Assembly: GCA_965218235.1 (NCBI GenBank)
Contig: OZ244595.1
Location: forward strand, 96,108 to 160,107
DNA from: Thermomicrobiales bacterium
GTDB taxonomy: Bacteria > Chloroflexota > Chloroflexia > Thermomicrobiales > UBA6265
Reading direction: 5' to 3'
Length of the DNA: 64,000 bases
The first letter of the stretch is position 1. The number at the start of each line of letters is the position of its first letter. Below the pieces are notes generated by a model. It saw only the letters and a list, made by a program, of their open reading frames with translations, was not told the origin of the DNA and made no database searches. Position numbers and translations under genes: made by a program. Shown here one piece after another: positions 33,005 to 37,323 of this stretch.

Positions 33005-33312
33005 GACGAGACCTCCATGGTTCCGTGGTCTTCCCGCCCCATCGCGGAAACCCCATCGGTGATGATAGCGACTGCACGGGACTGGGCGCAAATCCCGACC
33101 GGCCCACGCCGGATCGATCCCGCGGTCACCATGCTGACCCGGAGCGCCGAAGGGGAGATGTTGTCGGTGTCACCGTATTGTGGCGATGGGTCGCGCCGGG
33201 TACGGTAGCGTTCGCTCAACGCTCGATGGACGGGGGTGATCGATCGGGCCCTCCCACCAGAGGGCCGCTCGAAGTCGACGTGACCCACCATCTCAAACAG
33301 GGAGATCAACTC

Positions 33313-34557
33313 TTGGCCACGACACTGCTGCGGAACGGAACCGTGATCGATGGCACCGGCGCCGACCCGATCGACGATGGCGGCGTGCTGCTCCGTGACG
33401 GACGGATTGCCTCGGTCGGTCGGCTGGCCGACCTGTCCGTGCCGGACGGCACCGAAGCGATCGATGTCCGGGGCGGATACATCATGCCCGGCCTGATCGA
33501 TACCCATGTCCACATGATGGTCGAGGGGATGGACACCAACGCCCATCTGACCCGGCCCTTCTCCTACAACTTCTACCGGGCGATCGGCTTCCTCCGGAAC
33601 ACGTTGGAGTGCGGGATCACCTCCGTCCGCGACGCCGGCGGTACCGACGTCGGCGTCAAGCAGGCGGTCGAGGACGGCATCATCGCCGGACCACGGATGC
33701 AGGTCAGCACCGGCGTGATCGGCATCACCGGCGGTCACGGCGACAGCTGGCACCTGTCCGGGATCACCGTCCCGCTCTGGCCCGAGTACCCTGGGATGCC
33801 GGACGGGATCGCCGACGGTGTCGAGGGCGTCCGGAAGAAGGTCCGCGAGGTCCTTCGGGCCGGAGCCGAGGTCGTCAAGGTCTGCTCGACGGGCGGCGTC
33901 CTGAGCCCGACCGACCACCCCGAGTTCACCCAGTTCACGATCGAGGAGCTCAAGGTCATCGTCCAGGAGGCGCGGTTCCGGCGTGGGCTTCGGGTCATGG
34001 CCCACGCCCAGGGGTCCGAGGGGATCAAGAACGCGATTCGGGCCGGGATCCACTCGATCGAGCACGCCATGTTCGTCGACGACGAGGTGATCGAGCTCGC
34101 CCTCGCCAACGGAACGTTCTTCGTCCCGACCCTGCTCGCGCCGCTGGCGGTAATCGAGCAGGCCGCCGCGACCGGGGCGATGCCGGAGTACGGGCTGCGC
34201 AAGGCCCGTGAGACGATCGACGTCCACCGCGAGAGCATCGCCAGGGCGTACAGGGCGGGCGTCCGGATCGCGATGGGGACCGACGCCGGCGTGATGCCGC
34301 ACGGCACCAACCTCCGCGAGCTTGGCCTGATGGCCGACGTCGGCATGAGGCCGATGGATGTCATCGTCGCGACGACGAAGGTCGCGGCCGAGTGCATGGG
34401 CTGGGAAGACCGGGTCGGGACGCTCGAGGCTGGCAAGCTGGCCGACGTGACGGTCAGCTCGGTCGACCCGCTGTCCCGGATTCACGACCTGGCCGACGTG
34501 AACAATATCGCCCTCGTCCTCAAGGGCGGCGAGATCGCGATCGACCGCCGGGGGTAG
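33313..34557 (+). CDS. amidohydrolase family protein (imidazolonepropionase/prolidase-like)
   Basis: LLRNGTVIDGTG, PGLIDTHVHM, MAHAQG, HSIEH and GTDAG are present. I prefer the TTG at 33313 (GGAGA 7 nt upstream); the track start 33025 lies in the divergent region. Confidence 0.8.
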   Translation: MATTLLRNGTVIDGTGADPIDDGGVLLRDGRIASVGRLADLSVPDGTEAIDVRGGYIMPGLIDTHVHMMVEGMDTNAHLTRPFSYNFYRAIGFLRNTLECGITSVRDAGGTDVGVKQAVEDGIIAGPRMQVSTGVIGITGGHGDSWHLSGITVPLWPEYPGMPDGIADGVEGVRKKVREVLRAGAEVVKVCSTGGVLSPTDHPEFTQFTIEELKVIVQEARFRRGLRVMAHAQGSEGIKNAIRAGIHSIEHAMFVDDEVIELALANGTFFVPTLLAPLAVIEQAAATGAMPEYGLRKARETIDVHRESIARAYRAGVRIAMGTDAGVMPHGTNLRELGLMADVGMRPMDVIVATTKVAAECMGWEDRVGTLEAGKLADVTVSSVDPLSRIHDLADVNNIALVLKGGEIAIDRRG

Positions 34558-34635: not shown

Positions 34636-34663
34636 TTGACTCCATATTGAGTTCCTTTATAGT
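34636..34663 (+). promoter_or_regulatory. sigma70-like promoter candidate for the XRE-family gene
   Basis: -35 TTGACT (34636-34641), a 16-nt spacer, then -10 TATAGT (34658-34663), in an AT-rich patch 53 nt upstream of the ATG. Confidence 0.5.
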
Positions 34664-34715
34664 GGTGATCATTCCCCTATGATGTGGTCGGGCGAACGTT
34701 GAAGGACGTATCTGT

Positions 34716-35597
34716 ATGAGTGACGACTTCAATGTCGAGGCGCTCGGCCAACGGATCAGGTCACTGCGGACAGACACCGGTTTGACGATCGACGCCCTGT
34801 CTCGCCGGGCCGGGGTCAGCCGCAGCATGGTCGCGGCGGTCGAGGGCGGCGAGAAGGCGCCGACCGTCCTGACGTTGCACCGGATCGCGAACGGGTTGGC
34901 AACCTCCATGTCCAGCCTGCTCGGCGAGGAGACGCACGGCGACGTCGTCCTGCTCCGGCAGGGCGAGCAGCGGGTGGTGCGTGATCTCTCCGGCTGGGAG
35001 CGGCGCAGCCTGTCCCCGGCGCTGCCAGGTTCGGCCTTCGAGTTCATCCGAACGACGATCCCGCCCGGCATCGACACCGGCGTCTTCCCGCCCCACGCCA
35101 CCGGAACGCGGGAGATCGTCGCGGTTGAGGCCGGGTCGCTCCGCCTGACGATCGACGGGACTCCGTGGCTACTCACGGCCAGCGACAGCATCGCCTACAG
35201 GGGAGACGTCCTCCACCGCTTCGCCAACCCCGGCGATGTCGAGTGCGTCTACTACCCCGCCCTCCATCTGGTCGAGTCGCCGCGACACGTGCAGTCCCAG
35301 GAGACGGAGACGGGCCGGGAGCGAATCGCCGAGAACGATCCGCTCTGGGAACAGGCCGTCGAGGCGATTCGTGGCCAGCACTGGATCACCGCCCGGTTCC
35401 TGCGGGACCGCCTCGCGATCGACGAATCCCGCGCAACCGGGCTCATCTCGCAACTCGAACGAGCCCGGCTCGTGACTCCCGGCGACATCCCGGCGCACCT
35501 GACGATGTCGACCGCATATCCCCCGCTGGCGACGATCGGCGGACACGTCGATCCGCAAGCCAATATCAACCAGTACGGCACGGACGGGGACGCGTAG
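34716..35597 (+). CDS. XRE-family HTH + cupin regulator with C-terminal FtsK-gamma-like winged-helix extension
   Basis: The N-terminal HTH_3 is LGQRIRSLRTDTGLTIDALSRRAGVSRSMVAAVEGG. The cupin is HATGTREIVAVEAG...HRFANPG. The C-terminus DPLWEQAVEAIRGQHWITARFLRDRLAIDESRATGLISQLERARLVTPG resembles the FtsK gamma domain. Confidence 0.8.
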   Translation: MSDDFNVEALGQRIRSLRTDTGLTIDALSRRAGVSRSMVAAVEGGEKAPTVLTLHRIANGLATSMSSLLGEETHGDVVLLRQGEQRVVRDLSGWERRSLSPALPGSAFEFIRTTIPPGIDTGVFPPHATGTREIVAVEAGSLRLTIDGTPWLLTASDSIAYRGDVLHRFANPGDVECVYYPALHLVESPRHVQSQETETGRERIAENDPLWEQAVEAIRGQHWITARFLRDRLAIDESRATGLISQLERARLVTPGDIPAHLTMSTAYPPLATIGGHVDPQANINQYGTDGDA

Positions 35598-35665
35598 GTC
35601 GTCCTCCTCGACACCGTCCGGACGACAGATGCCCGGATCGCCGACGCTGTGAGGAAACTGCCTGT

Positions 35666-36187
35666 ATGACCGGATCAGCCGACCCGAACCGAGAGCCTCC
35701 CGTCGTCCGCGTGGCCGTCGCGACGCCCGACCAGGCCGTGATGGTCTATCAGGTCCTGCGAGAGGCGTTCGCCGAGCAGGCGACCCTCGACCCACCGACC
35801 GGTGTGGCCAGCGAGACACTGGAAACGATCACGGCGGCAATCGAGAGCGGCCAGACGATCGTCGCGAGCCAGGGCGGGGTCGTCGTCGGCACGATCCGCT
35901 ACGACCTCCGCCCGGCCAGCCTCTATCTTGGCCGACTCGGGGTTCCGCCCGCCCGCCGCGGCAACGGGATCGGCGGGGCGTTGATCGAGTGGTGTCAGGA
36001 GATCCTGGCCCCGGCCGAGGGGCGAACGACGATCGACGTCGAGGTCCGAGCCGAGCTTCCGGCGAACATCCGCCTGTTCGAGGATCACGGCTTCGTCGAG
36101 ATCCGCCGCTACGCCCACCCCCGTCAGTCGGCCGCCGAGGTCCGGGTGCTGCGCTGGCGGGCCGTCGGCGTCACCGCTCGACGCTGA
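35666..36187 (+). CDS. GNAT family N-acetyltransferase
   Basis: The internal ATG has GAGGAA upstream. RRGNGIGGALIEW and FEDHGF are present. The upstream 167 codons of the track ORF overlap the XRE gene and were discarded. Confidence 0.8.
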   Translation: MTGSADPNREPPVVRVAVATPDQAVMVYQVLREAFAEQATLDPPTGVASETLETITAAIESGQTIVASQGGVVVGTIRYDLRPASLYLGRLGVPPARRGNGIGGALIEWCQEILAPAEGRTTIDVEVRAELPANIRLFEDHGFVEIRRYAHPRQSAAEVRVLRWRAVGVTARR

Positions 36188-36211: not shown

Positions 36212-37123
36212 CTACCGCCGGGGCCGGGGTCCCTCTCCCGCAGCGGACCGAATCAGCACGCTGACCCAGGTCCGGTACGGCGCCCACCCAGACGTGATAC
36301 TGGCGACGTTGGCTGGATCGATCGGCGCGCTCAACCCATAGGCGACCGCGAGCGCCCCGACGAAACGGCCCTCGTTGGCGGGCGGGACGTCGACGGTCAT
36401 CGCACCACGGATCAGGATCAGCTCGGCCGAGAACGGCCCGACCCCGACCAGCCGCTGCAATGACGCCAGCCCCTCGTTCGCCGGCATTGCCCGCAGCCGG
36501 TCAGCATCGAGCGTCCCATCGGCCGCGGCGATGGCGAGACCGTGAAGCCACTCGGGTTTGCGGCCGCCAAGCCCGGAGACCGACGTCAGATCGGATGTCG
36601 CGAGGACGGACGGGGACGGGAACGCCGTGAGGTCGTGACCATCGTGGTGGACGACCACCCCGAACCGCCGGGCGATCTCCGCCTTGACCTTGGCCGCCTG
36701 GGCCATTTGAATGCGATGACTCGTGATCGCCCAGACGGCGGCCTCGAACGGCGACCAGAAGCCGGTCGGCCGGAAGCCGGGATTCGCGGCCTGAAGCTCA
36801 CCGATCACCGGGTCGCGCTGGCCGATCTCCGGGTAGCCGGTGCCGTCAAGGTCCAGCGACAGCAGCCGCGCGACCTGACGAGAGACCGCCTCGATCGAGG
36901 CGGTCGTGGTGACGCCGACGTCGACGGGACCGTCCCCCTCAGCCTGGCGGATGTCGACAGCGGCGACGTCTTCGGTTCCGTCAAGGACAAACGCGAGCCG
37001 CAGGACCGGCTCATTCGTCGCCGCGACCCCGGCGGGCGGGAACGCGTCGAGGAACGCCGTCGTCGCGGCGAGCCGATACGGCCCGCGGGGCTGGATGCTG
37101 AACCGTTCAGTCGCGGTTGCCAT
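36212..37123 (-). CDS. DNA-3-methyladenine glycosylase 2 family protein (HhH-GPD, AlkA-like)
   Basis: A helix-hairpin-helix LQRLVGVGPFSAELILIRG is followed by an Asp-containing loop. The start is MATATERF at 37123. Confidence 0.75.
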   Translation of the reverse strand: MATATERFSIQPRGPYRLAATTAFLDAFPPAGVAATNEPVLRLAFVLDGTEDVAAVDIRQAEGDGPVDVGVTTTASIEAVSRQVARLLSLDLDGTGYPEIGQRDPVIGELQAANPGFRPTGFWSPFEAAVWAITSHRIQMAQAAKVKAEIARRFGVVVHHDGHDLTAFPSPSVLATSDLTSVSGLGGRKPEWLHGLAIAAADGTLDADRLRAMPANEGLASLQRLVGVGPFSAELILIRGAMTVDVPPANEGRFVGALAVAYGLSAPIDPANVASITSGWAPYRTWVSVLIRSAAGEGPRPRR

Positions 37124-37323
37124 GACACAGGATCCCTTCGTCTGGCTGGCTCGCGGACACGCACGACCCCGAGCGGTGTGTGCTATGCAGAGACTGAGTA
37201 GCCGCAACGGCCACCATCTTGCGCGCCGGTCTCATTGTGTCCGTTCAGATGGACGGAATGCGACCTCTCTGCATGAGGTCGCGCAGTTGGTGTGCAACAC
37301 ACCGGATCAGGAGCAACAACACC

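Follow-up and report, generated by a model that had tools for sequence, protein, structure and literature searches.

A Thermomicrobiales XRE-cupin regulator with a divergent FtsK-gamma-type winged helix at its C-terminus

XRE-cupin transcription factors, such as PuuR and SutR/YdcN of E. coli, PsdR of Pseudomonas and the protein of PDB entry 1y9q, combine an HTH_3 with a cupin_2 domain and are described as specialised repressors with a local range, their targets being metabolic genes close by (PMC7901475). The gamma domain of FtsK/SpoIIIE (PF09397; PDB entries 2ve8, 2ve9, 2j5o and 2j5p) is a small domain with a three-helix winged-helix fold. To our knowledge, studies of it have so far been confined to chromosome pumps, in which it reads KOPS and activates XerD. 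Three gamma domains bind each 8-bp KOPS, with monomers binding poorly (PMC3384302), and a single H2-H3 surface serves both DNA and XerD, the latter being contacted by Q1288, R1289, R1292, I1293, G1294 and N1296 and activated by a peptide, 1289-RQFRIGYNR-1297, which is sufficient for this purpose (PMC5052618). A gamma fusion has also been published for the phage small terminase (Sam46/Sam112; PMC8190038).

The 64,000-nucleotide stretch of a Thermomicrobiales genome analysed here (the window) contains, at 34716..35597 on the forward strand, an ORF of 293 aa in which an XRE helix-turn-helix and a cupin_2 domain are followed by an FtsK-gamma-type winged helix (residues 206-264). The XRE-type helix-turn-helix domain (residues 1-70; 34716..34925, +) and the cupin_2 sensor and dimerisation domain (residues 100-185; 35013..35270, +) lie where the initial annotation had placed them: HTH_31 (E 1.2e-10, 41.9 bits, gathering score 27) and HTH_3 (E 3.4e-8, 33.8 bits, gathering score 23) match residues 9-66, and Cupin_2 (E 5.4e-9, 36.1 bits, gathering score 27.2) matches residues 113-179 in Pfam. 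The helix-turn-helix segment SRSMVAAVEGGEKAPTV is nearly invariant among homologues, the cupin region is modelled by AlphaFold2 as a confident beta-barrel with beta strands (pLDDT 76-95), and PDB entry 1y9q is matched at E 2.6e-12. The alignment to the PuuR equivalog covers residues 7-177, and NCBIfam sees the XRE and PuuR-like part only, without a match to the C-terminal 103 residues; neither Pfam nor NCBIfam finds the FtsK_SpoIIIE motor (alpha/beta) domains in the protein, the N-terminal part of which consists of helix-turn-helix and cupin. An extra C-terminal part of ~85 residues had also been noted, and it is present, but the length after the cupin is ~108 residues, made up of a 20-aa linker (residues 186-205; 35271..35330, +), the 59-aa divergent FtsK-gamma-type domain (residues 206-264; 35331..35507, +; peptide DPLWEQ...VTPG at nt 35337-35483) and a 29-aa tail (residues 265-293 and the stop codon; 35508..35597, +). 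The linker is fast-evolving and probably disordered (pLDDT <50 at residues 187-204), and its length and sequence differ among homologues; the tail is not conserved in the alignment and is also modelled at pLDDT <50.

As in the described XRE-cupin factors, the regulator gene adjoins a presumed metabolic target gene, at least in its ancestral setting. The order in five related loci (L001-L004 and L086) is a GFO/IDH/MocA oxidoreductase (-), an amidohydrolase (+), the regulator (+), a decarboxylase (+), a GNAT acetyltransferase (+), a protein of ~300 aa (-) and a luciferase-like monooxygenase (+); except for the missing decarboxylase, this order is found in the window, L087 and L085 as well. Judged by synteny, the GNAT gene of the window (35666..36187, +; Acetyltransf_1 E 1.4e-11) closes the ancestral unit of regulator, decarboxylase and GNAT. 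The decarboxylase, a group II PLP-dependent enzyme, is intact in L001-L004 and L086 (at 6832-8310 in L004) and deleted in the window, L085 and L087. A remnant of the 3' end of the deleted gene, corresponding to its last ~45 codons and carrying an internal stop, can still be recognized in the window at 35514..35665 (+), where QANINQYGTDGDA*VVLLDTVRTTDARIA aligns with RANIIHYGTTDDDLQVLIDAVRAVGGRLA, the decarboxylase C-terminus in L001, L002 and L004. The codon following M264 (35508-35510) is TCG in the window and TAG in the close relative L085, the protein of which ends ...HLTM; the disordered 29-residue tail is thus explained by the loss of the ancestral stop codon, with translation reading into the decarboxylase remnant.

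Two neighbouring genes deserve a brief comment. The 510-aa amidohydrolase ORF (33025-34557, +) probably starts near 33313, which would give a protein of 414 aa as in the homologous loci; the ~96 codons before that start lie over the divergent GFO/IDH/MocA gene of the opposite strand, and its nearest NCBIfam model, Xaa-Pro dipeptidase, is matched under its cut-off. The product of 36212-37207 (-), of ~300-330 aa, has a weak match to AlkA_N (E 5.7e-4, under threshold); its homologues have no Pfam assignment, and its gene adjoins the GNAT gene in all three-domain loci.

The association between regulator and decarboxylase extends well beyond the three-domain proteins. The search for orthologues with two domains yielded ~80, which belong to Thermomicrobiales, Methylomirabilota, Acidobacteriota, Gemmatimonadota, Streptosporangium and further groups, and ~50 of them, in several phyla, have the orthologous decarboxylase (43-70% identity) directly downstream. 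The closest relatives of this decarboxylase are aromatic amino acid, DOPA and tryptophan decarboxylases, which suggests that the ligand of the cupin may be an aromatic amino acid or amine.

The third domain sets the protein apart from all these factors, being absent from the ~80 two-domain orthologues and from all other clusters among 1.84 billion representatives. Its resemblance to the FtsK/SpoIIIE gamma pattern had been seen by eye. In Pfam, where the helix-turn-helix and Cupin_2 models exceed their thresholds, PF09397 does not: residues 206-255 are matched at E 5.4e-4 and 20.1 bits when the full protein is scanned, and the isolated C-terminus reaches 22.5-24 bits (24.0 at most), under the gathering score of 30.6, so that on the basis of the window sequence alone the third domain would be a lead and nothing firmer. 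The four best matches of the C-terminus among PDB sequences are, however, all FtsK gamma. Moreover, 11 clusters of homologues (263-293 aa, 63-98% identical) share the C-terminal domain in a single ORF, while ~14 shorter homologues (about 195 aa) end after the cupin, and PF09397 is the best Pfam family for 11/11 members of the family (best E 1.4e-7). A profile of the 59-residue domain built from the 11-member family retrieves 2j5o and 2ve8 first from the PDB (E 1.4e-6), the next four matches being further FtsK entries, and its comparison by hhalign with 17 genuine FtsK gamma domains, cut from full-length translocases, gives a probability of 99.3% and E 1.5e-20 over 52 columns. When the profile is run against 1.84 billion representatives, 227 matches are found at E <=1e-3, and PF09397 is carried by 146 of the best 147 non-self matches scanned with Pfam. 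The family profile settles, at the level of sequence comparison, that the third domain is a true homologue of FtsK gamma and that the sub-threshold match of the single sequence is not due to chance.

The predicted structure is in keeping with this assignment. In the full-length AlphaFold2 model, based on a 17-sequence family alignment, the gamma region shows three helices and no wing at pLDDT 56-74; given this weakness of the family-only model, the domain was modelled separately with a deeper alignment. Residues 198-266 then give three helices with a core pLDDT of 78-86, and the Foldseek comparison with FtsK-gamma structures returns 2ve8/2ve9 (P. aeruginosa FtsK gamma) as best matches, with TM 0.66-0.75 and rmsd 1.2-1.9 A over 50-53 residues, values to be read bearing in mind that the input alignment contained FtsK-gamma homologues and that the Foldseek E is ~0.1 for so small a domain. 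The domain shares with FtsK/SpoIIIE gamma its size, the three-helix winged-helix fold and the core DPL(W/Y)..AVE...(S/T)...L...L.I...RA...L...E...(I/L)V.P. The wing appears to be shortened in comparison with FtsK: the Pfam and hhalign matches end at model column 52, the ancestral protein ends 9 residues past LVTP, the domain model contains no strands and the wing Arg, which is R in 16/17 FtsK sequences, has no counterpart in the family.

The fusion itself is genuine and kept by selection. At least six loci from independent assemblies have the gamma domain in frame, and dN/dS (Nei-Gojobori) is 0.20-0.36 in the gamma region, with one pair at 0.62, against 0.06-0.25 in the helix-turn-helix, 0.14-0.27 in the cupin and 0.33-1.17 in the linker (residues 186-203). 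This contrast, together with the linker pLDDT of <50, indicates a gamma domain under purifying selection joined through a nearly neutral, flexible linker. A tblastn search of 84 loci and the window found no stand-alone gamma-like donor gene near the two-domain orthologues or in the window. The architecture read from the window sequence is, therefore, that of one ORF conserved through the 11 clusters, and the C-terminal part is not a separate or frameshift-fused ORF, the only exception being the 29-residue tail; a frameshift or mis-fusion of the gamma domain was considered and is rejected in view of the conserved ORF and its dN/dS values.

The combination of domains is unusual, as had been supposed: all its members found among the 1.84 billion representatives fall into a single cluster at 50% identity, and it occurs in 1/185,579 species-representative genomes, that of an uncultured Thermomicrobiales MAG. 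Less tenable is the rarity of PF09397 outside FtsK/SpoIIIE implied by the initial annotation, since most of the nearest relatives of the domain are not FtsK proteins. Indeed, the FtsK_SpoIIIE motor is found in only 27 of the best 147 relatives (of 227 matches); the others among those 147 are tandem gamma-only proteins or fusions to TIR, Mrr, RdgC, ParB, STAND NTPases, RNase_T or terminase small subunits, and in the Pfam census of the same 147 the gamma domain is never paired with an XRE, a cupin or any other domain typical of transcription factors. Many of these relatives are small proteins (110-330 aa) in which two or three FtsK-gamma domains in tandem make up the whole chain, an arrangement that mirrors the three gamma domains per KOPS; others join two gamma domains to TIR_2, Mrr_cat, RdgC, ParB or a STAND NTPase and look defence-related or DNA-sensing. 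In all of them, as in the regulator, a portable domain has been recruited outside FtsK, but there it is usually present in 2-3 tandem copies with near-canonical IGYNRAAR helices and nuclease, NTPase or packaging partners, whereas the ligand-sensing repressor has received just one copy, and a divergent one.

How far the domain has diverged is best seen on the surface that FtsK gamma uses for its partners, which was compared in 17 FtsK and 11 family sequences with contact residues and E. coli numbering from PMC5052618. Position R1289 is R in 16/17 FtsK sequences and D, T, S, A, Q or N, never basic, in the family; R1292 (K or R in 13/17) is replaced by A, S, E, V or D, G1294 (G in 15/17) by an invariant D, Y1295 (Y in 16/17) by E, A or S and R1300 (R or K in 16/17) by G, R or E, while the positions of N1296 (N in 13/17) and E1303 (E or D in 14/17) are variable. 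Sivanathan et al. reportedly found in 2006 that N1296A, R1300A and E1303A are KOPS-blind. Only 2/9 identities to RQFRIGYNR are left in the family, and the net charge ranges from -6 to +2 (median -2) in the family versus -3 to +3 (median +1) in FtsK gamma. The structural core is kept (DPL(W), A214, E216, L229, I235, R239, A240, E248, L252 and P255), and R239 and A240 (FtsK R1297 and A1298) as well as R232 are conserved on the H2-H3 face. The H1-H2 'TEKRKA' loop, also considered as a XerD contact, was dropped, as the 2016 structure puts the contact at the H2-H3 loop (PMC5052618). The third domain is, thus, by fold and family a genuine gamma domain, yet with the contact residues replaced it cannot, judging from the residues it presents, read KOPS or activate XerD in the way that FtsK does, from which the present protein also differs in having no translocase motor, an apparently shorter wing, a more acidic domain and one copy of it per chain.

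The comparative evidence for a palindromic predicted operator in the regulator's own promoter is a further feature shared with the XRE-cupin factors. A sigma-70-like promoter, TTGACT-16-TATAGT, with 10/12 matches, precedes the gene at 34636..34663 (+) and is conserved in the homologous loci; two promoter-like sites were found, against 0.1 expected in shuffled sequences. The -10 hexamer is overlapped by predicted operator box 1, CCTTTATAGTGG (34654..34665, strand not assigned), which has 2 mismatches to the palindrome CCACTATAGTGG and is the sole match to it with <=2 mismatches in the window. A degenerate predicted box 2, TCCCCTATGATGTGG (34673..34687, strand likewise not assigned), follows box 1 at a distance of 20 bp; L001 and L002 have kept this second box in good condition, and it has decayed in the window, L085 and L004. 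In orthologous promoters of several phyla CCACTATAGTGG usually occurs in two copies 20-21 bp apart, and 60/79 of its matches (<=2 mismatches) across 87 loci and 915 kb fall within 200 nt upstream of the regulator, a region that makes up ~2% of the sequence; in L006-L066 the distance from the palindrome to the regulator gene that follows it is ~25-135 nt. The two-box layout is alike in the three-domain loci and in the two-domain orthologues lacking the gamma domain. Taken together, these observations fit a core protein that would be a widely conserved autoregulator of the adjacent PLP decarboxylase, and it is from them that we infer binding and repression. In some Acidobacteriota/Terriglobia loci (L045, L048-L051, L054 and L061) the variants ACACTATAGTGT and GCACTATAGTGC are found downstream rather than upstream of the regulator, ~840-1120 nt and ~4077 nt past its start, a placement that suggests a different promoter arrangement or extra targets.

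The explanation that best accommodates these data, to which a probability of about one half is assigned as a whole, is that of a local XRE-cupin repressor of the PuuR/SutR type with an accessory, low-specificity DNA-contact module. By analogy with that family, the protein would bind CCACTATAGTGG as a cupin-mediated dimer through its N-terminal helix-turn-helix; with the two boxes 20-21 bp apart overlapping the -10 box and transcription start, binding would repress its own promoter. The ancestral targets would also include the downstream decarboxylase-GNAT genes, acting on a substrate of the aromatic amino acid type, and repression would be lifted once the cupin has taken up a small molecule. 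One Thermomicrobiales lineage has gained the divergent FtsK-gamma winged helix on a flexible tether of ~20 residues, most likely as an accessory that makes a low-specificity DNA contact beside the operator, thereby raising occupancy or helping to bridge both boxes. The mostly DNA-acting partners of non-FtsK gamma domains (Mrr, RdgC, ParB, terminase small subunit, RNase_T) fit such a portable DNA-contact module. Against this explanation it must be considered that, in the sequences compared, the surface used by FtsK gamma for DNA is remodelled and more acidic, and that the window genome has lost the decarboxylase, its presumed main target.

Among the other roles considered, a protein-protein module ranks next after accessory DNA contact or bridging, although it is itself improbable. 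The remodelled H2-H3 face would dock a partner, which could be a second regulator dimer (so that a tetramer spans both boxes), the helix-turn-helix or cupin of the regulator itself (autoinhibition) or another protein. This would extend the use that FtsK gamma makes of one surface for both DNA and a protein partner (PMC5052618), and would agree with the now acidic surface and the family-specific invariant residues W223, D236, H261, R219 and T225; two operator boxes on one helical face would also suit dimer-dimer bridging. The two-domain orthologues, however, have the same two-box layout without the domain, and no gene co-occurs specifically with the three-domain loci.

Bipartite DNA recognition, which the initial annotation had drawn from the presence of a second DNA-binding module, comes third and is unlikely. 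Here the gamma-like domain would read a second motif, the composite operator consisting of the XRE palindrome and a gamma site. Its homology to a sequence-specific reader and its position near DNA on a flexible tether speak for this role, and the decay of box 2 in the lineage of the window, L085 and L004, with CTATGATGTGG staying conserved, could mean a changed recognition requirement. Nevertheless, with the KOPS/XerD contact residues replaced and the wing apparently shortened, such recognition finds no support, and the operator layout is unchanged where the domain is missing. Within the domain, variation among proteins 63-98% identical is greatest at the equivalents of N1296, R1300 and E1303, which set specificity in FtsK, in contrast to the operator boxes, which are conserved across phyla; the seven three-domain promoters show no conserved motif beyond the two boxes, G-rich and KOPS-like or otherwise, in a sample too small for exclusion; and FtsK itself needs three gamma domains for an 8-bp site that monomers bind poorly (PMC3384302). 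Finally, it is very unlikely, and already largely refuted, that the gamma-like part is a passenger without function or stems from an error of annotation or assembly, be it as an insertion in decay, through a frameshift fusion or as an ORF of its own, since the truly accidental read-through of the last 29 residues and the sub-threshold Pfam score of the window sequence by itself are outweighed by the in-frame conservation in independent loci, the lower dN/dS than in the linker, the invariant core residues and the two-domain orthologues without a nearby separate gamma-like gene.

What is new in this protein is an architecture assembled from known parts, in a narrow lineage and with a putative function, and the effect of the added domain may be modest. 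Should the gamma-type domain aid operator binding or oligomerisation, the known uses of this domain would become wider, and repressors that have or lack it on one and the same operator would make a small natural system for the change of target of a winged helix; otherwise, the fusion would represent a lineage-restricted domain accretion of modest general importance. It is doubtful that the gamma module has become a working part of the transcription factor in the fuller sense, either as a DNA reader of new specificity or by bridging or clamping two operator-bound dimers; if this were true, a gamma domain would for the first time be seen to function in gene regulation, and nature would have supplied an example of its dual DNA/protein surface being re-specified. 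Independently of this, the palindrome CCACTATAGTGG together with the regulator-decarboxylase pair provides a usable regulon prediction across several phyla for a widespread XRE-cupin family.
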